Source: Candidatus Haiyanarchaeum thermophilum
GTDB lineage: Archaea; Nanobdellota; Nanobdellia; JAPDLS01; Haiyanarchaeaceae
Length of the DNA: 64,000 nucleotides
Direction: 5' to 3'
NCBI GenBank assembly: GCA_025920425.1
Contig: JAPDLS010000001.1
Location: forward strand, 1,754 to 65,753
Shown in pieces: positions 1 through 53,306 of this stretch. Position 1 is the stretch's first letter. Each line of letters starts with the position of its first letter. A model generated the notes under the pieces. That model made no database searches. It was given only the letters and a program-made list of their open reading frames with translations, and had not been told where the DNA came from. Made by a program: the position numbers and the translations under genes.

Positions 1-3000
1 AGGGGAAGTAAGTGTTAGATAACTTGTGAAGCATCTGGACCGAGAGTGTACTCTCGTTCAACACCTCTTCTGTACAATCGCTTGTAAGATTGAATTTAAT
101 TGTGAGATTATCCCCTCTTAGCAGCACTCTTGAGGAAGATGTGAGGAAGTAGATGGTAATATTTCCTAGGAGGTTTAGAGTGTGGGGAGAGGTGAGGTTT
201 ACATTTAAGTAGCAGTTATCAGCAACTCCAGCAACCCATTCCAATGTGCCAACTGAGTATTGGCACCCCGGAATCCAACTGAAGCTCGAGAAACCTGAGG
301 CATTGGTGAGATTGTAGAAACCATTTAGCTCTCCAGTCCTATTTCTGATCCAGAAAGTAGTCATAACACCCATAGGATAGCTCCAGTTCTCTTCATCGAA
401 TACCCTTACAACGAGGTTTGCCTGTTCAAAATTCCTAATCACAGGGGTAAGATCTGGAGGTGAAACGAACTCAATAGTTACATTACTTCTCTGGAGACTT
501 GGGGATCTAATTGGAGTTGTATTGAAGCTCTGAACACCATCATCTATCTCCCACATGAAGTAATTACTTTCTCCCATATCAGAGCAAGTGAATCCAGCAT
601 AGATTACTTCACATCTGCCAATGGTTGGATAGCCAGGAGTTCCAAGAATGTAAGAACTTCCAGCCTTCATCCATGTGTTTCCCCCATCCTTACTTATCCA
701 GAGAGTGCAATTTATATCGTCTCCTTCTTCATCACGTACTTCTATAGTATAATTGAATACTCTACTCCATCCCACTATTTGATTGCTTAGATTTCTCCAC
801 TCTCCTTCAGTATGGTTGAAAATCCAAATAGTTTCATTTTCTGCTATTGGCGCTCTATTTTCTAGCCAGAACCAGTTGAGATAGAAGGTGGAGTTATCAT
901 CATAATAGCCTCTACTACTTCTGAGCCAAACAGTGTAGTTGCCTTCAGGCTTTCCTATTGAGCTCCAAGTACAATTGTACCATCCAGTACCTTCATTGTA
1001 GACTGGTGAACATTCATATTGTTGAGAAGAGGAGTTGTGAATTAAGGTAACTGAATAGGAAGAAGCATCTGGGATGAGACCTTCATCTATGCAATCTGTA
1101 GAAATGTTGAAGCGGACTATGATGTTCTGAGTTACATTGAAAGTGCTTCCTTGTGGAGGAGATTCTAAGTTATTCTTGAGCTGCCCTATCACTAAGAGGC
1201 TCCATATAGTTGACTCAACATCCTTATAGCAAGCATTTCCAGAGACACTTACTTTCCAGAATTGAGTTCCTACTCCATAATTGCAATCTGGGTCAAAGTA
1301 GTATGTGGAGAAACCTGAAGCATTCGTGAAGCTGTAGTGGCCTCCATCGAAGTTAGAACCATCGTAGGTGAAGAAGAAGTAAAGGCTTACTCCTTCTCCT
1401 ACATAAGAAGCTCTATCAACATCATAGACCCTCACAGTAAATGGAGTAAATACAGTACCTTCCCTCCTAGCCTGAGCTCCTGCACCTGCGATCACCTCAA
1501 TTGTAATATCATCCTTTTCTAGAGTGAGGCTGCCCACAGAGCTTTCGGTGGAGAAGCCATGTTCATCTGTTGCAATGAACTTGAAATATACTGAGCCAGA
1601 CAGGTAATCATTACATTCAAAGGTGTGGTTGAAACTCACATCGCTCCAAGTAGTGCTTGAGATGATCGTAGATGTTACATATTTCCATGGTCCTCCAGGA
1701 GAATTAGCAACCAACAGGCTCAGGTTATTGGTATCGCCTTCCACATCTCTGAAGCTCACAGTGAAGGTGAAATTCCTTCCCCAACCTTCCCTACTTGGGT
1801 TAACTCTAGGATTTTGGAGTTCAGGTTTAGCCCCTAGGAAGAAAGCATCCTCTAGGAGGAAGTATGTACTCTCATAATATGGTTTTGATACATTCATACT
1901 AATATTGTACCATCCTAGGGAGAATCCGGTTGAGTCCCAGCTTGTTGTGTATGTACCATTTAACAGATCAATAGCCGGGTCTGGATAGGGCGTATATGAG
2001 GCTGCTCCCTGTATTACTCTAAACCTTACCGTGGCTCCAGTTATGTTACTACAATCATCACTTACATTCCCTAGAATCTCAATAACTTGATCTCTCCAGT
2101 AATAGGCATGCTGAGGTGAGAGTACATTTGCTACCAAGCTCGAGTTGATAAGCAATGTTAGGAGATCGGTAGAGTTAGCGCCATAGTAATAGGGAGATTC
2201 ATCCACTCCACCTTTCCACGTTTGCCAACCTACTTGATAAGCACAGTCAGGATTAAAGGAGAGATTTAAGTAGCCATAAGATGTAGTAGCAGGGATCCTT
2301 GGCCCCTCAGTAACACCATCTACAGTGATCCAAAATCCTCCAGTTAACCCACTGAGCGGATTTCCATATACATCTCTTACCCTTAAAGAGAGAAGCGTGG
2401 CATTGTTTCCTACCCTACTCACACTACTCTGATTTCCACTCACATATTCTATTACTACAGGCATCTTCGTCACGGTGAGAGATTGAATAGGTGTTTGGGA
2501 GACTCCTCCAAAGCTATCAGTAGCATTGAAGAACCACTCCCATTCTCCTATTTCTGAGGGCCCATACACACGGCTGAAACTAAGAGTGGTATGAATACAA
2601 TCGTCGCAACTTCCAGAATCTATTAAAGTCCAACTTGAGGTATCTTTCCTTCTATGCCAGAGATATACGGTTACGTGATCGTCATCGTCCGTTACATTAA
2701 CTTTAAAGACAAATGAAGTACTCCAATAGCTTGAAGAAGGGGTTACAAGAGCTTCTGCGAGGATTGGGGGAACCTCATGGAAGAAGGCTTGAGAAAATAC
2801 CTTGCTTTCGAAGTTGTAGAGGAGGCCCGAAGAATTCATTCTTATCCAATACCAGCCTGATGGGTTATTGGATATATTCCAAGTACAATTGAATACTCCG
2901 GGAGATTCACTTCCTACTGGCTCACAAATTGAGAGGAAGGAATCATGGGCTACCTCAAATGAAACGTCTACTTCGCTTATGTTTTCACCACATTCATCCT

Positions 3001-6000
3001 GTACGAGTCCTCTAATTGTGACATTTTCATTTGACCAGAAAACGTCTCCATTGGGAGCTAGAAGCGAATTTCTTGCCCATCCCTTTATGTTCAAAGTGAA
3101 GTTTGTTGAGGAATTAACATCTTTATAACATACATCTCCAGTTACTCCAGCCTTCCAAAGCTGGGTGTTCACAGAATAGCTACAGTTTGGGGAGAAGTAG
3201 ATGGAAAGATAGCCTTCAGAATCGGTGAGATTGCTCAAGCCCTCATCAAAGTTTGCTCCATCAGTAGTGACCCAGATCCTACCTAGGACTCCTTCTCCCA
3301 CATATCTATCAGCATCTAAATCATAGATTCTTACCCTCAATAGGACAGCCTCACTTCTATTTACCCATGAGTCATTTCCTGAAGAGAATTCCACATACCT
3401 AATCTCTGCGTCAGCTTGCGAGATAGAGAAAGCAATTCCTCCTCTATCCGTAGAGTTATACTCATCACTTGCATTGAATTTGAAATAATAAGTACCTATA
3501 TCGTTGCACGTAAAGCCCCTGTACTCGAAGGCAAGCTCAGTGACCCTTCCGCAATCGTAGCATAATTGAGATGAAACATAACTCCAAGTTAAATTATCAG
3601 GACTCAACCAAAGACTTACATTAACTGTATTTGCATTTGGATCGCTCACATTTACCTTAAAGGTGAATTTCTCTCCCCATCCACCATCCTCCTCAAAAAT
3701 CACCCTCTCTCCCTCTAAGATTGGGGGCTGCCATACTTGGTATATGAAGAAAGAATACCCTTTCTTTCCTTCCCCCCTATTGTAATATTCCACATTTTCC
3801 CCAATCATCGTTACATTATACCAACCTTCTGGAGCAGTGGTTGCATTGAAAGTACAATTATATGTGCCATTTCCGAGATCTTCTACAGGGGAACAGGTGA
3901 AAGTATCTCCAAATCCTAGACTCGTGAGGTTGAAAGATATTGTAGCTCCAGTGATATAAGTGGATTCACATTCATCGATCAAGTTTCCATAAATTGGGAT
4001 GTAAAGCTCCAGTTCCCTGTAATAAATTACCCCATCCGGGAATGTGACGACAGGTTTGAGATCTCCTATGATCGTTACATTGTATATTGGGGAGGAAGTA
4101 TCTTTGTAGCAAGCATCAGCAGAAATATAGGTGTACCAGTTTCTTTCTCCCACTTCATAATTACAAGTGGGATCAAAGGAGAAGTTCACATATCCTGAGC
4201 TGTTTGGGATATTACTCCCATAGATGAGGAAGGTGCTTCCATTATGGACGCTTAACCACACTTCAGGCTTTACAGCTGCTCCTAGCAACGTATAGGCTGG
4301 AGCATTTCTATCTGCATCATGGAGATAGAGGAGGAAGGAAATCGAATTCGAACCACTTCTATTTACTGAACCCCCATTGCCTAGAATGTGGAAGAAGAGG
4401 ACATCGTCCTTAGCAAGGAGATGGAAGAGAGAGGAAGTGTTTGAGTAGGTTTCTGGCACTCCTGGTTGAGAAGCATTAAATGCGAAATATCTGAAGCTAC
4501 TAGCTTGATAATCTTCACAAGAATATTCTCTAATGAATGTAACCAAGGTATTGGTTGGATTCTCCACATAGGTGCAAGAAGTTACATTCCAATCCGAGGT
4601 AGGAGTCCTTTCTAGGAGGCATACATATACTGGAGCATAATGATTTACTACTACGCTAAAGTTATGTGGCTCTCCCCAACTCCCATCTCCAGGATAGCTT
4701 ACACTCGGATTGGAGAGTTCTACTGGAGTGATGAGGAAGAAAGCATTCTCCATCGTGGTAAAGTTTGAATTGTAGAATTCCTTCATCACTTCCAGAGAAA
4801 CATTGTACCATCCCCCTCTCTTTCCGGTAGAGTCCCAATTACAAATATATAGGTTTCCCGAAGAATTGGTGGTAAATCCTGACTCGGGACAATAATAAAT
4901 GTCATCTTCATGTTGGAGTTTGAATCTAACACTAGCATTAGCTATTGGGTTGGAGCATTCGTCATATACGAAGCCTGAAAGTAAAATAGATGTGCCGGCA
5001 GTATAATTAGCATCTCCACTAGGACTGGCTATTAAGCCCTGAAGATCTCCACGAATGGTAACTTCCAATTCTGGAGTAGTATTAGTAGCATAGCATGGAT
5101 CACTTGAATTTACCTTCCATCTCCTCACTCCAACCTCATAGTTGCAATTGGGGTTGAAGTTTAAGGAGTAGGAAGTATCCTCTATGCTTTCGAACTCCTC
5201 TACCCATGTATCCCCACTTCTTTGAATCCAGAATCCTACATTAGAAGTAGGGATAGCGGTGATATATTCTCCAGTTACCAGATCAAATATCTGGACAGAC
5301 AATTTTACAGTAGAATTAGGTTGACTATCACTTCTGTTAACTACTGAGCCATTACCTGAAAGGTGGAGGATAGAAATTGGAGATTTAGTTACGTTGAATG
5401 AGATTAGAGAAGTTTGATTGGAGAATCCAGTTACTGAAGTAGCATTGAATTTAGCTGACCAAGATCCGATATCAGAACAGGTGAAATTCTTCCAAGTAAG
5501 GAAGAGGTAATTACTGCAGAAACTACACTCAGTACTATTTTCCAGTATCCAATCCCCACTTCCGTACCTGAGCCAGAGATAAGCAGTAATTGTCTCATTA
5601 TCCTCCCCACTCACATAAACTGAGAAGTTGAAAGGTCTGAGTTCCCAACTTCCTTCCACTGGCTGCACCGACGGTTGCTCCAGTCTTGGGATACTTGCTA
5701 GGAAAAAGGCATTTTCAAGCTTCACCGAACTTTCCCAATAATATGTTTTGTTTACCTTCATGGTAACATTATACCAACCAAGCGGAGCTGTCGTGGGTAT
5801 AATGAAAGTAGTGTAATAACTTCCCCTCAATGCGTTATAGCTTGCAGGGACCTCTATCACATAATCTGAATGTTGAAGCTGGAATATGGGTGTGGCATCA
5901 GTAATAGTATTTCCGCAATCATCTCTTACAGTACCTTCTAGAGCAACTTCCATACCATGAGTGTAATTGGTAGAACCATTTGGTAAGATGATAGTGGGAA

Positions 6001-9000
6001 AGAGATCTCCATATAAGAGGAATGAAACTGAAGAGGTGGAAGCTCCTTTATAATAAGTAGCCTCTAACACACCTCCTCTCCAGTAATTCGGCCCAAGGTA
6101 GAAATGGCTCTGACACCATCTATCTGAGGTATTTCTCATTTCTATCTTCGCTAGACCATTTTCATCTATCGCAGGATCTGGATAGAACCTTTGGAAGGTT
6201 TCAGCACTTCCATACTTTGAGATCTCTACATAGTTCTGACCAAATACTAAGAGGCTGGCCCAGCTCTCATTATCCAAATCGTAGATCGAGAGGGTAAAGT
6301 TGAAGGGCTTGCTCCTATTTACTATTTCATTAGGAAGTGGAGCTAATAAAGTGACTTCTACATCGTCCCTCTCCACATTGTAGACATAGCCAAGGAGCTC
6401 AGAAGTTCCATCCTCATTACTAGCATTGAACTTAAACTCCCAACTTCCAATGTCAGTTGGTTGATAGTCATAACTAAAGTCCACCTCACTCCAGTCAGCA
6501 CAAGAGCTACATATCTTGCTTCCGATCAACTGGTACTCCGCAGCTCCTACAGGCCTATGCCAAGCATATACTATTACATCTCTTCCGAATCTGTCCCTCA
6601 CCAAGACACTGAAGTTAAACTTCTCTCCCCATCCAGCTGTGGAACCTGGAGGCGCTCTTACTCCATTTATCCAGAGCGTGGCATTCGTGAGGAGTGGAGA
6701 ATAAGTATAGATCTTGGTTTTGATGAATAGGGGCTGTTGTTCTATGAATACCTTACCAGTTTGCCAAGTGTATGCAAGCTTTTCCAAGCTAATATTCCCA
6801 TTAGATCCATATGTGGCATCTACGTAAACTTGCAGTAATAAACTCCTGTTAGCTTTTCTGTATCTCCAACACTCCTCTTCATAGATTGTATAGTTGCTCC
6901 AGCCCTCGTTGCTCTCGGCTCCTAAGCCATAATTCTGCCATGCTAAACTGCTGCGATTTTCATCATCGGTAAAGCTAAGGGAAGCCTGACCAATAGTTAC
7001 ATTTTGACCATACCAATCATATCTCAAGAAGAAATCAACCTCCTTGAGCCGTTCGTAGCGTGCGTTCTCCGGTTTGCTGAAGGCATATTCAACTAGTCTG
7101 GAGGAATTATTTCCAGAACAGTAAAGCTGCACGTCCTCAATAAATGTGGTATAATTCGTAGTATCCTTGATTCCTTGCACTGTTAGAATGTGGGCTCCAA
7201 GCACAGAGCAGTTCAGGGTGAAGTGAAGATAGGTGCTATTTTTGGCCTGTAAGTCAGAAAGTGACCAGATTATCTTTCTAGATGTTTGATTCCATACCCC
7301 ATTTTCATATACCTGAACTACCTCACACCCTGGAGGTATGAACATGCTTATATTCCAGCCTGACGCCAAAGTATCTCCTATATTAGTTATGTGGAGGCCG
7401 TAGTTATACTCTTTATTGAGCTGAGCGCTCCTAGGCTCAGGCCAGGGATAATCTTCCTGCTGAATGACTTCCAGATCGAACTGTAGATGACTCTCGTTAG
7501 TGTAGTTAAAGGTGGAAATGGTATGATTTTCACTTTCCTCTAGGAGCTTATTATCAAAATTTACCTCATATTTAACTCCTCCAGCTTGAGCAAGGCCTGG
7601 AGGAGATTTGATCTGATATACTAGGATAGCATATTGATTAGGTGCAATTTTTCCAAGTTCCCAAGTTATGATGTTCTCCTCAAGATCTACTGAAGAAGAA
7701 CCTGAGATATTTCCTAGGATCATTGGATTAGCTGGAGTCCACCCTATTGGCACAAACTCCTTTACTAGAGTACTCCCATTAGTAGTTCCGCATCCTTTAT
7801 TGTGGATCACGAGCCTAGATTTGAAGACCAAATTACTGGCTACTACGCTTGGGGTCTCCCTAATCACCTCTAGGATTGGAAGGGAGCTCCCTTCCTCTAT
7901 TGTGAATGAAGCATTTTTGGACTTCGTCACCCCTAGTGGATACATGTATTGCACAGTAGCATTTATGGCTACAGTCTCGCTTTGAGCATTACTAGAAGTG
8001 AGGTCAAATCTTACCAGATATTTCCCAGGAGTGGAAGCTTCTATCAGCTGATAAGAGGGAGTATAGCTCCACCCAGTTGGTACGATGAGAGAAATATTGT
8101 ATTGTATGCTCTCATTGAATGGATGATAGACTATTACATAATATGGTTCAGTGGTGGAATTGCACATCCATCTGCTACCTGAGCTTTCAACCACTACATC
8201 TTGGAGGAGTAAAGTCTCAGTCCTCTCAGAAGATGATGGGCCACATTCCACATAAGTCTTGAGAACATAAAAGCCATATTCCCAGCCTATAGTACTTATC
8301 CCTGTGAAATTAAAGAAAGCAATAGAGTCCCCAGCCAAGCTTATGGGTTGGGATGAAGAATAGAAGATAGCCCCGCTAGTATTGGTGATATTTAGCCACA
8401 AAGTCCCTGAGCAGGGAGCTTCATAGGAGTTGGCTATCCTCACACTTACATTAAATTCCTCCTCACTGCCCTCTAATCCAGAGAGAATTGCCTCATTTAC
8501 TTTAACTAAGATATCTTGAATTTTGATAGCTTCAGTATAGTAAGCTTGCAGTTCAGCCCAGCTCAAGTTAAATCCATTATCGCCTACATTAGCTATTCTT
8601 ACCTTACATCTCCCATTTTCATCTGCATTTAGCTGATTTTGAAGCATTAGGATGGAGAGATTTTGTTCTCCTGTGAGATTGATCTTGAGGCTGTGGAGGA
8701 TATCTAGCCAGTTAGTCCCATTGTAGCTCCATACTCGGAGTACAATTTCATAGGGTGAAGCTGTTACGTTACCTATAGTGAGAGTTAAGTTTGCTATTCT
8801 ATAATCTCCAGCTTCACATTCCCAGTTCAATACCTTTTCCTCATTTTCATTTATTATGAAGGGCAACTGCTCGAGGGGAGGAGAAGGTTGCTTTAATTTA
8901 TACACAGTAAAGTTATCGGAGGAGGCCACATCACTTCCAGCATTACTTGAATTGACAACTATCGTTACATTAATTTCTCCATATGTAGTAGGAGTAATAT

Positions 9001-10870
9001 GCCACCATACCGGCTTGTATTCACCCACAGCTATTATTCCTAAGGATTTAGTTACCTCATCTACATACCAACCTTCTGGAAGGATGATGGTAGCATTTAC
9101 ATCCTGAGCATTTCCAACCCAACTGGTTAGAGTAGCATTTATGGTAAAGTTCCTATACTGAAATGTTTCCTTTGGAGCATAGATCTTATATATTTCTACC
9201 TGAGGCTGGCATCCAAGCAATTGAATAGTTATAGTATAATTCTCAGAGACTACTGGCTTATAATTTGGTTCAGTTGGAAGTATCTCAGCAGCCCATAGTT
9301 GGTCACCTTCGTACCATCCCTCACAATTGGTTATGTTGAAATAGAAGCTAGCATAACCCTCCTCATTGGTGTAGTTCTCACCTATTACTTTGAAGCCTTC
9401 TGGATAATTGGGATTGTAGAGCTTGAAAGTCACACGTGCTGAGGGATTAGTTACATTATAAGTGCCTCTATCCAAATCGTAAATTCTTACTATTAGCCAT
9501 TGAGGCTGAACATCCTTAATTACCACTGTATTGTTTCCTGCTACATAACTCATGTTCACATCATCTTTTTCCACAACTACTGAGAGGACCTGAGAAGTTT
9601 CAGCCCTTCCATCCATCTTGAACTGATAATACCACACCCCCTGCTCACTGGCTGTGAAATTCCTAAGCCAATATTTGAGCTCCTGAATGCAGTTAAAGCA
9701 TTCCGTTGGAGTTTGGTTTACACATGTGGGAGACTCACACTTAAATACTGGAGGCCATGCAGTATGCATATAGAGGCTGACATTCCAAGAGTTTTCAACA
9801 TCTCCAGAAGTGGCTATTACTGAGAAATTCCAGTTTGGATATCCCCATCCTTCCACAGTAGGAAAGGCAGCAGGATTTTCAAGCTTCAAGCGGGGGTGTA
9901 AGTAAAATAGTCCAGGAACTCCAATTTTAGAAGTGCTATTCTCATAGTAATAAGGAGCAATGGCTCTCATAGTTGAATTATACCATCCCATTGGAGTGAA
10001 AATGCTGGTTGACCATTCACATGTATAGGCATTTGCTCCTACCCTCGAGACTGGAGTGCATTCAAAGCTAGTAGTTGTATGGTTGGCGAAGAAGGCAACT
10101 GTTGCTGTAAGAGGATCCCCGCAATCATCAGTAGTAGCTCCTAGGAAGAATATGTCATCTTCCTGAGTATAGTTGGTGAGTCCATCTGGTCTTTGAAAAT
10201 CTAGAAGAATATCACCTGTGACGAGGAGAGTCAAGTAATATTGGCCTTCAGTAGATACATCGTAATAGCATTCACTTCCAGAGACTACAGCTTTCCATCT
10301 TTGATAGCCCACGCCATACTTTGGAACACAGCCTGCTTGAAAGGAGTAGTAGGCAAAACCGGAAGCATCTGTAAGGTTGGTGGTGCCAGTATCGTAGATA
10401 TTTCCATCTATCGTTACGAAGAAGGTGACAGGTAAATTATGAATGAAGGTACCGTTAGCATCCCTTACTCTCACTCCTAGTAAAGTAGTAGTTCTACCTC
10501 TCCTAGTTTCAGTATCATTTCCAATTACTTCTTCGAAGAAGATGGTATCTTTAGTTATGGTAAAGGTAGCAGTAGTGGAATTTGTAGTACCTGCATTATT
10601 CGTGGCATTGAACTTCACGAAGACGATAGGACTTATGTCCTCACAGCTTGGGTCAAATTCGAAGGAAAAGTTCAGCCATTCTCCTATGCTTTGGCCTGGA
10701 GCAGGGTAAACTTGGCACTCTCCTACAGGCTTCCAAGGGCCACTACCAGTCTTGCTAAACCACGAACAGACATAAACATCACTCTCACTATTGCTCACCC
10801 TCACACTTATATTGAAAGTGAAATTGAATCCCCAACTTCCTGTTGAGGTACCAGTCTCGTGAGAAACTAT
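1..10870 (-). repeat. Protein-level repeat array: nine copies of a ~314-338 aa unit (two, then a ~1,070-aa spacing containing non-repeat sequence, then seven tandem)
   Basis: Recurrent motifs GxWGxxFxFxV..D, CxxC, FTCxDxG..FKFNA, GN...V.R, FxPxCxYxVG..W, DxC, GWYN. Anchor spacings are 987, 3216, 984, 969, 999, 954, 942 and 1014 nt. Confidence 0.85.
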
Positions 10871-13800
10871 GGTAACATTTTCCATCTCTATTACGGCTGG
10901 GGGGAGTGAGACAAGGACTTCGGTGCAGTTAATTACTTCTGTAGAATTCTCAGTAGCATTAGCTCTAATACAAATAGTATAGGTACCTGCTACGTTAGCT
11001 ATTACCTCCCATTTAGCTTCAGCGCTTCCCTCGAGTGGAATATTTCCCAGATAATTTATGTCACTATTCATTCCGCTAGCATTCCTGAGCTGCAAGCTTC
11101 CTGGACCTGTGTAGTTGATTATTGCAATCACATCAGAGGCCGTGCCTGGTCCAAAATTACTTAAGATTGAACTTACATTGAAGGACTGGCCAACTAGAGG
11201 AGAAGGAGGAGAGATGAGAGGCGCACTCACCACTAAGCTTGCTCCACAAGCAACAAAGATGGTATAATTTCGATCATAAAAAATGAAGGTCCCATTCAAA
11301 TGTCTAGCAAAGAAAGTAAACGTTCCATTAGTTTGGTATGGGACTGAAATAAGATAGGAAAAATTCTGGGAAGAGGCTTTTCCAGTAACATCAAAGTTTA
11401 CTCCACTCCAAGAGACCAATTGATTATCGTAATAGCTTGGCTGGGGCTGGAAATTACTGAATTGAAGATCTCCAGGATGAGTTACAGAGACATTGAACTT
11501 ATTCTCAGTTATGTTAAAATTACTCGCAGGTAAATTACCTTTATTGAAAACCTCTAACTTTGCTGTAAAGTTTCCACAACCAAATGTAGTTGGAAAACCT
11601 CTCTGTTCATCTGCTTGAGTTATATTGTAATATCTTATTGTCTTCAGCCAGGGCCCAAGCAATTCGATTGCAAGCTTATCTGTGTGATAATGATAGGTTT
11701 TAGTGTAGCTACCATACCCTAAAAAAGTGAGTGCTATTGGTTTACCTCCAGGAACGAAGTCTTTATAAGAAACATTTCCTGAGGAGAGAGTAAATGAGTA
11801 GGTTACACTCCCCTCAGCAGCTAGTGTTACTGTCCATCCTCCTGCATGCCATACAGATCTTCTTACTATGTAACCCTCATCTAGAGAGCCGAAAGGATAA
11901 CCTGGAGCCAGTGTAATATTGAAGTTTGAAACGTTGAAGCCTGGAGGAAAATAAGCTTGCCAATCAGCATTTCTAGACACATTATTGTCATGATTTTTAA
12001 TGGTTAATGCCACTCCAATAGAGGAGTCAGGCAAGATGTTCGTTACATTTAAATAAGGATGTGCTGTGCCAGCTTCTGCATCAGCTCTTGGTACTGTAGG
12101 AACATCTACACTTTCCTCGAGGGATATAACCTTACCACTTCCAGGATCTAGCCATGTGACTAAAGTGGTAACAGTCTCCACGCCTGCATCATTACTACCT
12201 CGGTAAATCACCTGTAATTTTTGACATTTTCCAGTGGGTAGGGCAACATCCCACCAGCTAGTTTGACTTCCATTAAGATTGGCAGGAGGAGTAGTCTGGT
12301 ATACAGCAGAATGCAACGTCATCAGTACTGAGACATTTACAGTTACGTTAAAATCTCCATAATTACATACAGTTATAGCAACAGGAAATTCGCTCCCAGC
12401 TGGAGGAGCAGCATCCTCAACTCCAATCATTATTGGCATTGCCCTGTAGAGTACTATAGGTAAAGGTTGCGATTCAATTCCATAGAATGTAAATTTCTTC
12501 TCGTAAATTTTCGTGTCTCCATTTGAGTTATGAATTGACACCTTTGCTATATAGGTGCGGGCAGCATCTACTTGGTCCGGTACTATAATATGCCACTTAG
12601 TTATGTTTGTCTGCCATTCACCTGGGTTCTGGGAAGCACCAATAAAAACGTTCTGCGAGGGTCCCTCTATTATGAACCAATCATATTTATTGCCCAACTC
12701 ATCAAATATCTCCAAAGTCAAATTTGCTGTGAGCGCTGTGGTTAAATTATAATTAGCCAGTGGTACTACTACAGTAAGTAATGATCCAGCAACTGCCTTG
12801 TCTTTTTCATGAGTAAATACTTTTATATCTCTAGCTAAGTCGATATTAGAACAATTAATAACCCTTACTACATGAATATGGGTTCCTTTATAACCTGCTG
12901 CTGGTGCCTGAGCTATGTACATTCTCAACTTAGCTATCCCTGAAGCTTCAGGACTCAAGCTCAATTTCCATTTATCCCAGTAGCATCTATCGTCTGTATT
13001 CAACGCACAAGTAGTGATACTAGCATTACCTCCAACTTCTCCTCCAATATTCCTTGCATTAACATCCCCTCCCCAAAGACCAAAGCCTTTGTAGTAGCCA
13101 GTATTGGGGATAGTAGTATAGCTACCATCCCCCTCTGGCATAACTTGTAAGTATAGGGTAAGGGTGTCGGGATCTTCATCAGCAGCAGTTTCTAGAGCAG
13201 TGTAATGAATTGTATAATTGTGGCCGGCGCAGAGGACCATGGGATCAATTGGGATATAACTGATAGAAGTGTCGTTATAGTAGAAATACCAAGTGTACAT
13301 CATCCAGAAAGCGTCAGCTACTATAATGCTATAGTATCTCCCCTCCCAAAAGGTTAGATTACCAGAGTTTATTAGGATTTCACCCAAATGGTAAATTCTA
13401 GGAACGAACATCGGTGTCTGAAAAGTGTAGCTCAAATTTACAGCCTTACTGGTTAAATTCCAAGTTATGGTCAAATTTTCCTGAGTTCTCCGAATTATTC
13501 CCCCGCCAGCATCAAGAACTATGAAATCTGGTGGAAGAACTTCGGTAACAGTGAAAGTTTCATCCTCCACATAGGAGTTGATTTCCAATTTTGCAGTCAC
13601 TTCCTCTCCTGCTTCAGGAAGGAGCGGAATATCTCTACTTATTTCAAATTCAACAAATTCTCTTGCCTCAAAGCTTGTATTATATTCAGCTATCATCTCA
13701 TCAGTTATGGCAATAGCATTCACGAAGTATTTCCCTACTTCTTCCACTAAATAGTAGGCGAAGAATGTACCGTCTGATTTTCTCTTTACGCTCTCAGGTG

Positions 13801-14734
13801 TGGTCAGAATGGCTTTCTCTCCGGAAGGAGAAACTATGGTCAAAGTAATATTCGCATCTCCAACTACAGCACCTTTTGAATCTAACACACCTATCAGAAT
13901 TTCTGCCACTTCCCCTGGCTTATAGATATTTTTCCTTGTGTTTACAGTGATTATGCCTACACTAAGATTTTCCTCCACCTCTCCTAAGACCTCTTCATTT
14001 GGACCAAGTGCTCTAATCTTAAGCTTATAAATTCCTGGCCTAATACTTCTTCCAAAATCGAATTCCAAATGATACTTTTCCCCATATCGCTGGGGGAGAA
14101 TCTCCAGTAGCCTTTCCTCAGGGTCTTGTAAGAAGGCCTTCACTTTAATATTTGGGGAAGATTTAGTACTTAGCTGAAATTTCAACTTTTTGCCAGCCTG
14201 AATGACAGAAGAGAACTCAGATAATTCTATCTCAGCTGACTGAGAGGCTGGGAGTTCTGAGGAAGTTAAATTGACTGAATAATAGAAGGAGGTAGAATTG
14301 CTAAGGTTTCCACTACTTACTATCACCTCATATTCGCCACTTTCATTCCAATCAGCTTTCACTTTTGTAGTGAAGCCTCCTGGGGTTTCTTGAATAAATG
14401 AAAATACAGTAGAGTTTGTAGGAGAAAGAATGATTATGGATGCATTGCCCATGCTTGAGAAACCAATGATAGTTAATTCCTCTCCAAATGTAAGATGCAA
14501 TTTATCTACTTCTACTCCAACCTGATTTGAGTGGTTGGATAATTGTAGGAGAGAGCTGTGGAACCCTGTGAGATTGGAGGAGTTTGAAAGTAGGATAGAT
14601 GTGGGAATGATTGAGGAGAGTAGGAAGAGGATTAGGAGTACTTTTACTTGCGATTTTAAATTGGATCTACTAGAACTTTCTCTTACGAATTCCGGCTTGC
14701 CTGAGAAGTTAGATTTAAGTCCCAGCTTTTCCAT
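1..14734 (-). CDS. Giant secreted surface protein (>=4,911 aa, 3' end beyond window) with ~320-aa tandem Ig-like repeats; putative adhesin/envelope protein
   Basis: ATG at 14734 (MEKLGLKSNF...KVLLILFLLSSIIPTSILL, signal-like). Blocks translated by hand near both ends and nine repeat-anchor Trp codons (10834, 9847, 6631, 5647, 4678, 3679, 2725, 1783, 769) all lie in the same frame. The other two minus frames hit stops within bases 1-60. The ORF track lists no stop-terminated ORF in this frame, consistent with a frame open to base 1. Rich in NxS/T sequons and Cys pairs. Confidence 0.9.
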   Translation of the reverse strand, partial: MEKLGLKSNFSGKPEFVRESSSRSNLKSQVKVLLILFLLSSIIPTSILLSNSSNLTGFHSSLLQLSNHSNQVGVEVDKLHLTFGEELTIIGFSSMGNASIIILSPTNSTVFSFIQETPGGFTTKVKADWNESGEYEVIVSSGNLSNSTSFYYSVNLTSSELPASQSAEIELSEFSSVIQAGKKLKFQLSTKSSPNIKVKAFLQDPEERLLEILPQRYGEKYHLEFDFGRSIRPGIYKLKIRALGPNEEVLGEVEENLSVGIITVNTRKNIYKPGEVAEILIGVLDSKGAVVGDANITLTIVSPSGEKAILTTPESVKRKSDGTFFAYYLVEEVGKYFVNAIAITDEMIAEYNTSFEAREFVEFEISRDIPLLPEAGEEVTAKLEINSYVEDETFTVTEVLPPDFIVLDAGGGIIRRTQENLTITWNLTSKAVNLSYTFQTPMFVPRIYHLGEILINSGNLTFWEGRYYSIIVADAFWMMYTWYFYYNDTSISYIPIDPMVLCAGHNYTIHYTALETAADEDPDTLTLYLQVMPEGDGSYTTIPNTGYYKGFGLWGGDVNARNIGGEVGGNASITTCALNTDDRCYWDKWKLSLSPEASGIAKLRMYIAQAPAAGYKGTHIHVVRVINCSNIDLARDIKVFTHEKDKAVAGSLLTVVVPLANYNLTTALTANLTLEIFDELGNKYDWFIIEGPSQNVFIGASQNPGEWQTNITKWHIIVPDQVDAARTYIAKVSIHNSNGDTKIYEKKFTFYGIESQPLPIVLYRAMPIMIGVEDAAPPAGSEFPVAITVCNYGDFNVTVNVSVLMTLHSAVYQTTPPANLNGSQTSWWDVALPTGKCQKLQVIYRGSNDAGVETVTTLVTWLDPGSGKVISLEESVDVPTVPRADAEAGTAHPYLNVTNILPDSSIGVALTIKNHDNNVSRNADWQAYFPPGFNVSNFNITLAPGYPFGSLDEGYIVRRSVWHAGGWTVTLAAEGSVTYSFTLSSGNVSYKDFVPGGKPIALTFLGYGSYTKTYHYHTDKLAIELLGPWLKTIRYYNITQADEQRGFPTTFGCGNFTAKLEVFNKGNLPASNFNITENKFNVSVTHPGDLQFSNFQPQPSYYDNQLVSWSGVNFDVTGKASSQNFSYLISVPYQTNGTFTFFARHLNGTFIFYDRNYTIFVACGASLVVSAPLISPPSPLVGQSFNVSSILSNFGPGTASDVIAIINYTGPGSLQLRNASGMNSDINYLGNIPLEGSAEAKWEVIANVAGTYTICIRANATENSTEVINCTEVLVSLPPAVIEMENVTIVSHETGTSTGSWGFNFTFNISVRVSNSESDVYVCSWFSKTGSGPWKPVGECQVYPAPGQSIGEWLNFSFEFDPSCEDISPIVFVKFNATNNAGTTNSTTATFTITKDTIFFEEVIGNDTETRRGRTTTLLGVRVRDANGTFIHNLPVTFFVTIDGNIYDTGTTNLTDASGFAYYSFQAGCVPKYGVGYQRWKAVVSGSECYYDVSTEGQYYLTLLVTGDILLDFQRPDGLTNYTQEDDIFFLGATTDDCGDPLTATVAFFANHTTTSFECTPVSRVGANAYTCEWSTSIFTPMGWYNSTMRAIAPYYYENSTSKIGVPGLFYLHPRLKLENPAAFPTVEGWGYPNWNFSVIATSGDVENSWNVSLYMHTAWPPVFKCESPTCVNQTPTECFNCIQELKYWLRNFTASEQGVWYYQFKMDGRAETSQVLSVVVEKDDVNMSYVAGNNTVVIKDVQPQWLIVRIYDLDRGTYNVTNPSARVTFKLYNPNYPEGFKVIGENYTNEEGYASFYFNITNCEGWYEGDQLWAAEILPTEPNYKPVVSENYTITIQLLGCQPQVEIYKIYAPKETFQYRNFTINATLTSWVGNAQDVNATIILPEGWYVDEVTKSLGIIAVGEYKPVWWHITPTTYGEINVTIVVNSSNAGSDVASSDNFTVYKLKQPSPPLEQLPFIINENEEKVLNWECEAGDYRIANLTLTIGNVTASPYEIVLRVWSYNGTNWLDILHSLKINLTGEQNLSILMLQNQLNADENGRCKVRIANVGDNGFNLSWAELQAYYTEAIKIQDILVKVNEAILSGLEGSEEEFNVSVRIANSYEAPCSGTLWLNITNTSGAIFYSSSQPISLAGDSIAFFNFTGISTIGWEYGFYVLKTYVECGPSSSERTETLLLQDVVVESSGSRWMCNSTTEPYYVIVYHPFNESIQYNISLIVPTGWSYTPSYQLIEASTPGKYLVRFDLTSSNAQSETVAINATVQYMYPLGVTKSKNASFTIEEGSSLPILEVIRETPSVVASNLVFKSRLVIHNKGCGTTNGSTLVKEFVPIGWTPANPMILGNISGSSSVDLEENIITWELGKIAPNQYAILVYQIKSPPGLAQAGGVKYEVNFDNKLLEESENHTISTFNYTNESHLQFDLEVIQQEDYPWPEPRSAQLNKEYNYGLHITNIGDTLASGWNISMFIPPGCEVVQVYENGVWNQTSRKIIWSLSDLQAKNSTYLHFTLNCSVLGAHILTVQGIKDTTNYTTFIEDVQLYCSGNNSSRLVEYAFSKPENARYERLKEVDFFLRYDWYGQNVTIGQASLSFTDDENRSSLAWQNYGLGAESNEGWSNYTIYEEECWRYRKANRSLLLQVYVDATYGSNGNISLEKLAYTWQTGKVFIEQQPLFIKTKIYTYSPLLTNATLWINGVRAPPGSTAGWGEKFNFSVLVRDRFGRDVIVYAWHRPVGAAEYQLIGSKICSSCADWSEVDFSYDYQPTDIGSWEFKFNASNEDGTSELLGYVYNVERDDVEVTLLAPLPNEIVNRSKPFNFTLSIYDLDNESWASLLVFGQNYVEISKYGSAETFQRFYPDPAIDENGLAKIEMRNTSDRWCQSHFYLGPNYWRGGVLEATYYKGASTSSVSFLLYGDLFPTIILPNGSTNYTHGMEVALEGTVRDDCGNTITDATPIFQLQHSDYVIEVPASYNALRGSYYTTFIIPTTAPLGWYNVTMKVNKTYYWESSVKLENAFFLASIPRLEQPSVQPVEGSWELRPFNFSVYVSGEDNETITAYLWLRYGSGDWILENSTECSFCSNYLFLTWKNFTCSDIGSWSAKFNATSVTGFSNQTSLISFNVTKSPISILHLSGNGSVVNRSDSQPNSTVKLSVQIFDLVTGEYITAIPTSNVGFWIQRSGDTWVEEFESIEDTSYSLNFNPNCNYEVGVRRWKVNSSDPCYATNTTPELEVTIRGDLQGLIASPSGDANYTAGTSILLSGFVYDECSNPIANASVRFKLQHEDDIYYCPESGFTTNSSGNLYICNWDSTGKRGGWYNVSLEVMKEFYNSNFTTMENAFFLITPVELSNPSVSYPGDGSWGEPHNFSVVVNHYAPVYVCLLERTPTSDWNVTSCTYVENPTNTLVTFIREYSCEDYQASSFRYFAFNASQPGVPETYSNTSSLFHLLAKDDVLFFHILGNGGSVNRSGSNSISFLLYLHDADRNAPAYTLLGAAVKPEVWLSVHNGSTFLIYGSNIPNSSGYVNFSFDPTCNYEVGERNWYTYISADACYKDTSSPIYNVTIIGDLKPVVTFPDGVIYYRELELYIPIYGNLIDECESTYITGATISFNLTSLGFGDTFTCSPVEDLGNGTYNCTFNATTAPEGWYNVTMIGENVEYYNRGEGKKGYSFFIYQVWQPPILEGERVIFEEDGGWGEKFTFKVNVSDPNANTVNVSLWLSPDNLTWSYVSSQLCYDCGRVTELAFEYRGFTCNDIGTYYFKFNASDEYNSTDRGGIAFSISQADAEIRYVEFSSGNDSWVNRSEAVLLRVRIYDLDADRYVGEGVLGRIWVTTDGANFDEGLSNLTDSEGYLSIYFSPNCSYSVNTQLWKAGVTGDVCYKDVNSSTNFTLNIKGWARNSLLAPNGDVFWSNENVTIRGLVQDECGENISEVDVSFEVAHDSFLSICEPVGSESPGVFNCTWNISNNPSGWYWIRMNSSGLLYNFESKVFSQAFFHEVPPILAEALVTPSSSYWSTSFVFKVNVTDDDDHVTVYLWHRRKDTSSWTLIDSGSCDDCIHTTLSFSRVYGPSEIGEWEWFFNATDSFGGVSQTPIQSLTVTKMPVVIEYVSGNQSSVSRVGNNATLLSLRVRDVYGNPLSGLTGGFWITVDGVTEGPRIPATTSYGYLNLSFNPDCAYQVGWQTWKGGVDESPYYYGANSTDLLTLLINSSLVANVLSPQHAYYWRDQVIEILGNVSDDCSNITGATVRFRVIQGAASYTPYPDPAIDLLNGTYTTSWDSTGFSLGWYNISMNVSKPYYESTYFLLEDAFFLGAKPELQNPRVNPSREGWGRNFTFTVSFRDVEGDTNNLSLLVANSPGGPWKYVTSTIISSTTWSDVSFNHTFECNDYLSGSVYFKFIATDEHGFSTESSVGSLTLEKDDITIEVIAGAGAQARREGTVFTPFTVRVYDVDRASYVGEGVSLYFFFTYDGSNFDGGHYSFTNASGFSTYYFDPDCNYGVGTQFWKVSVSGNACYKDVESTIWSLLVIGQLKNNLESPPQGSTFNVTQNIIVRFNISTDCIDEGLIPDASSYSVTLIHNSSSQQYECSPVYNEGTGWYNCTWSSIGKPEGNYTVWLRSSRGYYDDNSTFYLNWFWLENRAPIAENETIWIFNHTEGEWRNLSNQIVGWSRVFNYTIEVRDEEGDDINCTLWISKDGGNTWMKAGSSYILGTPGYPTIGRCEVIYAGFTCSDMGESNYFMWEIDDGVQSFNTTPIRSPSLQRSNVTIEFVSPPDLTPVIRNFEQANLVVRVFDEENWSYPMGVMTTFWIRNRTGELNGFYNLTNASGFSSFSWIPGCQYSVGTLEWVAGVADNCYLNVNLTSPHTLNLLGNITIYFLTSSSRVLLRGDNLTIKFNLTSDCTEEVLNESTLSVQMLHKLSNTYFP

Positions 14735-14817: not shown

Positions 14818-15585
14818 TCAACTTGAAGCGACGAAGAGGCTTTTAATTTTCTGAAAAATCCCAACTTTTTCTTCCATTCCCACGAGTTTTTTTGCCAATT
14901 TCTCAAATTCCCTAGAAGATCGAGCCTTAGGATTTAGGATGGAAACAGGTATTTTGAAAACATTGCTTTCGATTAACTCCTTATCATAGGGGATAGTAGC
15001 CAATATAGGTAAATTGACGCTTACCCCTATTTCCTCTGGTCTAACTTTATATCTCTTCTCATACATATTTACTACCACTCCCAAAATAGGGATATTGTAG
15101 GAACCTACTACTGCTTTCACTCTCAAAACGTCAAGTACACTGCTCAAAGTAGGAATGGCTACGAGCATGACCTCTTGGGAGCAGAGAATGGCTGAAATTG
15201 CCTCCCTTCCGAGTCCAGGAGCACCATCTAATAGGACGAAATCATTCTTACCCACGAGGCTGCTTAACTTTAATCTCAAATCGAGAAGGTCTACTCCATA
15301 AAGATCTCTTGGGGAAAGGGAGCCTGGGATAATCTTCACACCACTCTTATGTTCATAGATAGCATCTTCGATTTCATAATCTCCCCTCAATACCTGATTC
15401 AAAGTTACTGGATAATCGTAAAATCCAAATAGGAGCCCAAGATGAGAAGTGGTAAGATTGCAGTCGATTGCGATTACTTCTTTTCCCAGTCTAGCTAGTT
15501 GGATTGCCAGATTTGCTGTTAGAGTACTCTTACCTACACCTCCTTTACCTGAGAGTATACCAATTACCCTACCCACTTCCCTCAC
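14818..15585 (-). CDS. minD: Archaeal MinD/ParA-family ATPase
   Basis: Deviant Walker A SGKGGVGKST, IDCNL, LLDGAPGLG, GVVVN and IPYD motifs; 255 aa. Confidence 0.9.
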   Translation of the reverse strand: MREVGRVIGILSGKGGVGKSTLTANLAIQLARLGKEVIAIDCNLTTSHLGLLFGFYDYPVTLNQVLRGDYEIEDAIYEHKSGVKIIPGSLSPRDLYGVDLLDLRLKLSSLVGKNDFVLLDGAPGLGREAISAILCSQEVMLVAIPTLSSVLDVLRVKAVVGSYNIPILGVVVNMYEKRYKVRPEEIGVSVNLPILATIPYDKELIESNVFKIPVSILNPKARSSREFEKLAKKLVGMEEKVGIFQKIKSLFVASS

Positions 15586-23284: not shown

Positions 23285-23421
23285 CGGGCCCGGAGGGATT
23301 TGAACCCCCGAAAGACCAGCTCTCACTGCTCAGAACAGGTCAGTTCTCTCACTGATCGACCCGCTATCAGGTCTTCATAGCTTAGGAGGCTGGTGCCCTA
23401 TCCTGGCTAGGCGACGGGCCC
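23285..23421 (-). tRNA. tRNA-Arg(CCU) with 61-nt intron at 37/38 (23322-23382)
   Basis: GGGCCCG/CGGGCCC acceptor stem, D-loop GG-A20, CCAGC/GCTGG anticodon stem, anticodon CCT at 23386-23384, GTTCAAAT T-loop. Confidence 0.9.
23322..23382 (-). ncRNA. Intron-encoded box C/D guide sRNA
   Basis: C box AUGAAGA (23378-23372), 12-nt guide CCUGAUAGCGGG, D' UCGA, C' GUGAGAG, 12-nt guide AACUGACCUGUU, D box CUGA (23333-23330), closed by a GC/GC stem. Confidence 0.8.
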
Positions 23422-53222: not shown

Positions 53223-53306
53223 GTCGGGGTAGTTTAGCGGTAGAATGCCAGGCTCATGAGCCTCTGGGAGACCTGGAGGTCCCGGGTTCAAATCCCGGCC
53301 CCGACA
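53223..53306 (+). tRNA. tRNA with CAU anticodon (elongator Met most likely), 12-nt intron 53259-53270
   Basis: GTCGGGG/CCCCGAC, CCAGG-CT-CAT-G|intron|A-CCTGG; CUCA pairs with intron UGGG (BHB-like). Lacks the initiator A1:U72 pair and the three G:C pairs. Confidence 0.9.

Follow-up and report, generated by a model that had tools for sequence, protein, structure and literature searches.

A 64,000-nucleotide (nt) stretch from Candidatus Haiyanarchaeum thermophilum (the window; contig C1 1754-65753) opens within a giant gene on the minus strand whose product carries an array of a repeated unit of ~325 amino acids (aa). The organism is a DPANN archaeon of the symbiont type with a tiny genome (723 kb in 14 contigs, 92% complete). 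Each unit consists of three sub-blocks, A, B and C, that are predicted to fold as three β-sandwich domains. We propose that this unit is probably a stalk module and that the array serves as a rigid spacer in a giant SPEARE-like membrane protein. The module is undescribed, and a literature search found no paper describing such a tri-domain unit, whereas the protein type, that of giant membrane-anchored DPANN surface proteins, is already known.

A sequence-only reading of the window had described nine tri-block units of ~325 aa. These units are real: a phmmer search of the protein with one unit returned nine copies in the window at independent E-values of 2e-13 to 1.6e-45, so that the units align significantly with one another, and the three motif strings noted for A, B and C recur almost letter for letter in the alignment consensus. 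However, nine is not the full count, as the array extends past the window to 13 units in the whole protein, the last four lying on the rest of C1 and on contig C9. Nor do the nine form one unbroken run. A β-rich insert of ~730 aa parts the second unit (U2) from the third (U3), and it is U3-U13 that follow one another without interruption as units of 318-338 aa. Among the units in the window, one is degenerate (U2) and one is cut by the window edge (U9). Altogether the units account for 49% of the whole protein and about half of its ectodomain. They are 25-33% identical in protein, and the earlier description of them as highly diverged at the DNA level is correct because they share only 20-54-nt imperfect matches, at motif positions.

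How large is the protein that carries these units? A single open reading frame (ORF) encodes 4,911 aa within the window, with no stop before the window start, and runs on to the first base of C1 (5,495 aa on C1). The end of C9 and the start of C1 overlap by 127 nt, and C9 extends the frame by 3,146 aa to a stop codon, such that the joined product is 8,600 aa long and its gene of 25.8 kb occupies 3.6% of the genome. Support for the join comes from P0153, which was assembled independently, crosses the junction and is colinear over aa 1-5803 at 96% identity. Ahead of the array lies a non-unit ectodomain (~1,240 aa) in which Pfam finds MG2 (E = 3.9e-11 over aa 266-308) and Filamin. After the array, outside the window, come ~1,900 aa of further immunoglobulin (Ig)-like, CARDB and NPCBM_assoc domains with a Gly/Pro-rich linker, a transmembrane helix at aa ~8197-8237 (hydropathy scan) and a cytoplasmic tail made of a DUF87/HerA-type P-loop domain and a helical C-terminus. 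The tail matches DUF87 (2e-09), HerA_C and, weakly, ResIII/FtsK in Pfam, has weak matches to CedD/HerA/TraC in NCBIfam, and carries the Walker A motif GATGSGKS at aa 8290. A separate feature of this end of the protein is the cysteine-rich motif FVCGNEECELEFGEGPINCPVDC at aa ~7860-7960 (contig C9), just N-terminal of the last CARDB-like domains and the transmembrane helix; a (GGP)n / PNIT / PPAA low-complexity linker comes after it, and the motif is kept in the Micrarchaeia homolog P0157.

The fold of one unit was predicted with AlphaFold2 (AF2) for U6, using 11 full units as the alignment. The resulting model is all-β, with a predicted local distance difference test (pLDDT) value of 89.3 and a predicted template modeling (pTM) score of 0.73, and contains three sandwich blocks at residues ~17-106, 110-210 and 213-321. 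Foldseek comparison of the single unit with the PDB returned arrays of macroglobulin (MG) domains (complement C3/C4/C5 and alpha-2-macroglobulin, A2M), an Ig-type cell-adhesion molecule and the RII extender of an ice-binding adhesin. These results agree with the earlier suggestion of three Ig-like domains per unit. The E-values of the matches range from 1e-10 to 1e-8 but the TM-scores are 0.25-0.4, and therefore the likeness lies at the level of single sandwiches in tandem. Block A has no Pfam match at E ≤ 0.1 in the 11 units scanned, and its assignment as a β-sandwich is a prediction of the whole-unit model. That the three blocks make up one super-module, as had been proposed, is borne out by 154 proteins with full-length matches to positions 2-316 of the 316-position unit profile, the median distance from one match to the next being 332 aa.

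Does the module belong to a named family? When the 11 units are scanned singly, every Pfam match falls under its gathering score (whole-protein scans sum such sub-threshold stretches). The sub-threshold matches on blocks B and C are to Big_1, Big_7, Invasin_D3, CarboxypepD_reg and MG2/MG4, with Big_7 on U6 reaching 21.4 bits (cutoff 24.1) and Big_1 giving an E-value of 1.2e-05 at best. NCBIfam gives no match on the units, and a PDB sequence-profile search with them returned nothing at E ≤ 1. By these three scans no named family covers the module. The sequence-only reading had not recognized the repeat as a named family, and this stands for the module but not for the carrier protein, which falls in a described class (SPEARE; PMC6642349, PMC10266531). 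Profile-profile comparison of the blocks found weak similarity between A and B and between B and C (probability ~75%, P ~2.5e-5) and no similarity between A and C.

The joint between units is modeled with less certainty than the unit itself. For two units AF2 gave a pLDDT of 88.6 and a pTM of 0.45, the latter carrying less weight because the alignment (non-overlapping pairs plus relatives) is shallow and still partly out of register, with 1,066 columns for ~650-aa sequences. Superposition of the two-unit model yielded a much closer fit to extended Ig rods, with a root-mean-square deviation (rmsd) of 17.7 Å over 677 columns for titin I65-I70, than to compact MG rings, for which the rmsd was >50 Å. 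The models, the second of which derives from a shallow and part-misregistered alignment, point to an elongated chain in which the three-domain geometry is well defined and the unit-to-unit angle is not. The suggested modeling of a single and a double unit has thus given a confident unit but not a confident joint, and the rigid rod proposed at first divides in the same way: rigidity is plausible in light of the putative inter-domain cysteine bridges described below, but a continuous rod is not borne out by the two-unit model. The picture that fits best is one of rigid modules with less certain hinges, not a continuous rigid rod.

What could hold the three domains of a unit together? Cysteine positions were compared in 402 full-length units from 154 proteins found by the unit profile. 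Eight profile columns carry Cys, and these co-occur as four pairs: columns 52-55, the CxxC in A (both present in 141 units, neither in 219, discordant in 42); columns 68-193, in the A and B blocks (243, 155 and 4, respectively); columns 175-239, which flank the B/C boundary (377, 19 and 6); and columns 261-274, in C (293, 82 and 27). The cysteine count is even in 381 of the 402 units. The pairing is not a subfamily effect because all eight combinations of the three optional pairs are found. The units in the window follow the same pattern, in that U3 and U7 have each lost both members of 68/193 and both of 261/274. Moreover, the phi coefficient for columns 68-193 is 0.98 within a unit as opposed to 0.07 with the partner column of the neighboring unit. 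The conserved cysteine pairs noted earlier are confirmed, but an arrangement of one pair per sub-block is not, since two of the four co-varying pairs bridge sub-blocks. The 68-193 pair must bridge domains because its members lie 125 residues apart, which is more than one ~100-aa domain. Given the order of strands in the model and typical sandwich topology, the bonded loops would face each other, with Cys 68 and Cys 175 in loops on the C-terminal side of one domain and Cys 193 and Cys 239 in loops on the N-terminal side of the domain that follows. The co-variation suggests inter-domain disulfide staples between A and B and between B and C. The ectodomain of the giant protein contains 129 cysteines.

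The profile search that had been suggested as a check on the units matched 955 cluster representatives at E ≤ 0.001, of which 336 fell below 1e-30, and a single representative contains as many as 17 units. The members that carry a name are annotated as 'hypothetical', 'DUF87' or 'DUF853' proteins and come from metagenome-assembled genomes (MAGs) of Micrarchaeia, Aenigmatarchaeota, Parvarchaeota, Nanopusillaceae and Nanoarchaeota. The distribution is patchy, with full-length units in 6 of 61 genomes (the organism's own and 60 relatives) and in 8 of 401 genomes drawn evenly from across the phylum. The comparison of copy number across relatives, also proposed earlier, gave 13 units here vs 23 in a complete ~12,000-aa ortholog from another family (genome G013), whose layout is the same: 2 units, an insert, 21 units, then the transmembrane helix and ATPase tail.

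A maximum-likelihood tree built from 58 units of four proteins clusters them by position instead of by genome, such that U1 falls with G013 unit 1 and U3-U8 with G013 units 3-8, mostly with starred support. Because the units group by position across genomes, the array predates the split of these families, and the expansion is old, as the sequence-only reading had supposed. Beyond unit 6 the clades of the tree alternate with a period of three. In four relatives (G013, P0002, P0010 and P0157) unit identity is raised at lags 3, 6 and 9, the observed value being reached by at most 1 in 2,000 permutations in each; in G013 the array with this three-unit period lies at G013:C3 ~5726-41894. The lag-3 periodicity test gave no signal on the H. 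thermophilum protein. In several relatives, then, the array grew by blocks of three units (~1,000 aa, nine domains).

Which known proteins does this architecture resemble? The SPEARE proteins of Nanohaloarchaeota reach 8,553 aa, are mostly extracellular and have a C-terminal transmembrane helix, and their conserved cytoplasmic domain was also reported in Woese-, Aenigm- and Micrarchaeota (Hamm et al. 2019, PMC6642349). The cytoplasmic ATPase was described in that work as type III restriction-helicase-like (PMC6642349) and by Reva et al. as VirB4/TraG-like (PMC10266531). In this 2023 re-reading the protein consists of a signal peptide, ~75 Ig-like domains, a transmembrane helix, the ATPase and a coiled coil, and the protease and nuclease assignments are disputed (PMC10266531). 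Named representatives are NAR1_1133 of Ca. Nanohaloarchaeum antarcticus (PMC6642349) and SVXNc_0300 of Ca. Nanohalococcus occultus (PMC10266531). AOV94740.1 is likewise named as a SPEARE protein. The protein presented here shares with SPEARE a length of thousands of residues, an N-terminal export signal, an ectodomain composed mostly of tandem Ig-like domains, a single transmembrane helix near the C-terminus, a cytoplasmic VirB4/HerA/DUF87-type P-loop ATPase and a helical C-terminal tail; in both cases the gene makes up ~3-4% of a tiny DPANN symbiont genome. However, the laminin-G, protease-like and toxin-like regions of the original SPEARE definition are not found by Pfam anywhere in this whole protein, nor are the β-propeller domains of SPEARE. 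A second VirB4-like ATPase gene, which lies directly downstream in nanohaloarchaea, was sought directly downstream here and none was found. Finally, the tri-domain cysteine-paired unit dominates the ectodomain here, whereas the nanohaloarchaeal and woesearchaeal tail homologs examined lack it. More than 300 giant proteins of Aenigm-, Micr-, Woese- and Nanohaloarchaeota have a tail that is 50-72% identical to this one; among them, a DUF87 giant protein from a Nanohaloarchaeota MAG shows 54% identity. Because only 28 of the best 120 tail homologs carry the tri-domain unit, it is one of several alternative ectodomain building blocks of the class. On sequence grounds the architecture appears SPEARE-like, with homology suggested by the shared DUF87 tail family and by the statement of Hamm et al. 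on similar tails.

The sub-blocks resemble Big_1/Big_7, invasin/intimin D-domain and MG arrays in that all are ~100-aa β-sandwiches, with weak sequence and fold matches to the units, but those arrays have a one-domain period while the period here comprises three different domains. To our knowledge, conserved inter-domain cysteine pairs are not a feature of the Big_1/Big_7, invasin/intimin or MG families. Sandwiches grouped into a longer conserved period are also seen in the 7- and 11-domain super-repeats of titin and in region II of the 1.5-MDa adhesin MpIBP (PDB 5irb), which can be likened to the unit array as extended length-setting rods; titin I65-I70 and 5irb are among the fold matches. 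However, neither has a sequence relationship to the units, and the MpIBP repeats are near-identical and calcium-stiffened, whereas the units here are ancient and diverged and would be stiffened by disulfides.

The ectodomain contains 347 N-x-S/T sequons vs 102 ± 9 after shuffling, at ~14 N-glycosylation sequons per unit, while the cytoplasmic tail contains 1. A gene for the AglB/STT3 oligosaccharyltransferase is present in the genome (contig C8, 3503-4336). The sequon excess suggests a glycan coat on the units.

In the model that we favor, the unit would act as the stalk module of an 8,600-aa type-I-like membrane protein. Four disulfides are predicted per unit, namely the CxxC hairpin pair in A, the pair inside C and the A-B and B-C loop staples, and the two inter-domain staples would fix A-B-C as a single stiff body. 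Successive units are linked by a short joint that contains proline but lacks conserved cysteines, and this joint may serve as a hinge. The C-terminal transmembrane helix would anchor the ectodomain, placing the HerA/VirB4-like P-loop ATPase at the cytoplasmic end. The array is most likely a long, protease-resistant spacer that determines the reach of the distal N-terminal domains beyond the cell surface, probably in the direction of a host cell, and its length differs by lineage, as the unit counts of the two orthologs show. Several points weigh against this model. The proposed disulfide bonding derives from co-variation and from a loop topology deduced from strand order. Moreover, no VKOR or DsbA-like (Thioredoxin_4) gene is found in the 92%-complete genome, and therefore the bonds, if formed, would arise without a recognized oxidase. 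The drop in two-unit pTM may partly reflect the alignment and the elongated shape instead of a true hinge. Lastly, strict positional orthology at 25-33% identity is not expected of a purely interchangeable spacer and could mean that individual units have roles of their own.

This last point leads to an alternative hypothesis, which we consider unlikely though worth weighing, that the units are binding modules, each positional unit recognizing a different host-surface glycan or protein, and that the array is a multivalent adhesin. Positional orthologs kept across families at such low identity suggest that each unit is under constraint of its own. Invasins and intimins adhere through tandem Ig-like domains, and the same role has been proposed for SPEARE ectodomains (PMC10266531). 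However, conservation falls mainly on core aromatics, glycines and cysteines, which look structural, Pfam finds no lectin, laminin-G or other recognized binding domain in the units, copy number differs almost two-fold between orthologs, and the dense sequons would mask much of the surface. It is a good deal less probable that the array belongs to the symbiont's own envelope, whether as a sheath, an S-layer-like lattice or a ruler for a periodic partner. A three-unit higher-order period would suit periodic assembly, as titin super-repeats do, and both the lag-3 signal in the four relatives and the alternating unit types of the tree are in keeping with it, as is a neighborhood with pilin-like and stalk-like surface genes and MinD, the last of which, with two downstream genes, is syntenic in G013. 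Yet the periodicity is undetectable in the H. thermophilum protein itself, block duplication explains it more simply, and a protein with one gene copy per genome, its own transmembrane anchor and an ATPase tail is unlike lattice proteins.

A further version of the ruler idea, just as improbable in our estimation, would have the units, which in relatives are grouped into super-repeats of three, act as a titin-like molecular ruler with a periodic partner (for example the adjacent pilin-like or stalk proteins) in an intercellular bridge of fixed length, with the HerA/VirB4-like tail and MinD positioning or powering transfer. If this were true, the bridge would carry DNA or cytoplasmic material between host and symbiont. 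The least credible of the readings is an alpha-2-macroglobulin/complement-like protease trap, and we reject it. The top Foldseek matches (complement C3/C4/C5, A2M and A2ML1) and the MG2 match at aa 266-308 do point in this direction, but TM-scores of 0.2-0.4 and rmsd values of >20-50 Å place the likeness at the level of single sandwiches. Pfam finds no thioester (A2M/TED) or bait domain, and the CGEQ motif is absent from the whole protein, where the only near match, 'CGEN' at aa 3915, has as its Cys the conserved column-239 cysteine.

If the units do form a stalk, why would such a module matter? DPANN archaea need physical contact with their hosts, and giant surface proteins are leading candidates for making it. 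The ectodomains of these proteins have so far been described only as 'many Ig-like domains', and the unit is a defined, searchable building block that offers both a testable stiffening mechanism, in the form of inter-domain disulfides, and an evolutionary rule of ancient positional orthologs with growth by three-unit blocks in relatives. The natural variation in stalk length between 13 and 23 units can be compared with the dimensions of host envelopes. A single unit of ~35 kDa is small enough for expression and structure determination and would provide a first experimental handle beyond halophiles.

Table 1 Features of the giant gene and its product in window coordinates.
Feature	Window position	Strand	Evidence
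Giant gene, in-window part (aa 1-4911); complete product 8,600 aa after C1-C9 join	2..14734	-	ORF
N-terminal hydrophobic helix, aa 29-51; signal peptide or membrane anchor	14582..14650	-	Hydropathy scan
N-terminal non-unit ectodomain, aa 52-1289; other β-sandwich domains (MG2, Filamin-like)	10868..14581	-	Pfam
U1, aa 1290-1616; full A-B-C, ortholog of G013 unit 1	9887..10867	-	phmmer 4.8e-28
U2, aa 1617-1960; degenerate, part of A and B recognizable, C diverged	8855..9886	-	phmmer 1.7e-13 (aa 1676-1838), alignment
Non-unit insert between U2 and U3, aa 1961-2690; ~730 aa, β-rich	6665..8854	-	Pfam, weak DUF11 match
U3, aa 2691-3018; without 68/193 and 261/274 cysteines	5681..6664	-	phmmer, cysteine columns
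U4, aa 3019-3341; all 8 canonical cysteines	4712..5680	-	phmmer, cysteine columns
U5, aa 3342-3666	3737..4711	-	phmmer, cysteine columns
U6 domain A, aa 3667-3774; predicted β-sandwich, CxxC (C3725, C3728), C3743	3413..3736	-	AF2 strand pattern; no Pfam match
U6 domain B, aa 3775-3878; predicted Big_1-like sandwich, C3851, C3869	3101..3412	-	Pfam sub-threshold, AF2
U6 domain C, aa 3879-3988; predicted Big_7/invasin-D3/CarboxypepD_reg-like sandwich, C3915, C3937, C3950	2771..3100	-	Pfam sub-threshold, AF2
U7, aa 3989-4306; without 68/193 and 261/274 cysteines	1817..2770	-	phmmer, cysteine columns
U8, aa 4307-4644	803..1816	-	phmmer, cysteine columns
U9, aa 4645-4966; cut at aa 4911 by window start	2..802	-	phmmer
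U10-U13, distal Ig-like region, transmembrane helix, DUF87/HerA tail	outside window	-	C1/C9 sequence

The giant gene is preceded, at a distance of 84 nt, by a gene for a MinD/ParA-type ATPase (window 14818-15585, minus strand). Directly downstream (contig C9 1688-4512) are three genes of unknown function encoding 223, 366 and 292 aa, followed further on by genes for an acylphosphatase and ribosomal protein S3Ae. In G013, a genome from another family, MinD and the genes encoding 366 and 292 aa keep their synteny with the giant gene.

Two archaeal RNA genes, for 23S rRNA and RNase P RNA, also lie in the window. The 23S rRNA gene (window 33917-36902, minus strand) has ~58% G+C in a genome of 41% G+C, a high rRNA value that may point to a warm habitat. 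Directly after the 23S gene comes that for RNase P RNA (33631-33881, minus strand), and no 16S gene is adjacent. ARAGORN finds one tRNA with an unreadable anticodon at window 53223-53306 on the plus strand. Rfam adds a 137-nt tRNA match at window 23285-23421 on the minus strand, missed by ARAGORN, which is most likely an intron-containing tRNA.

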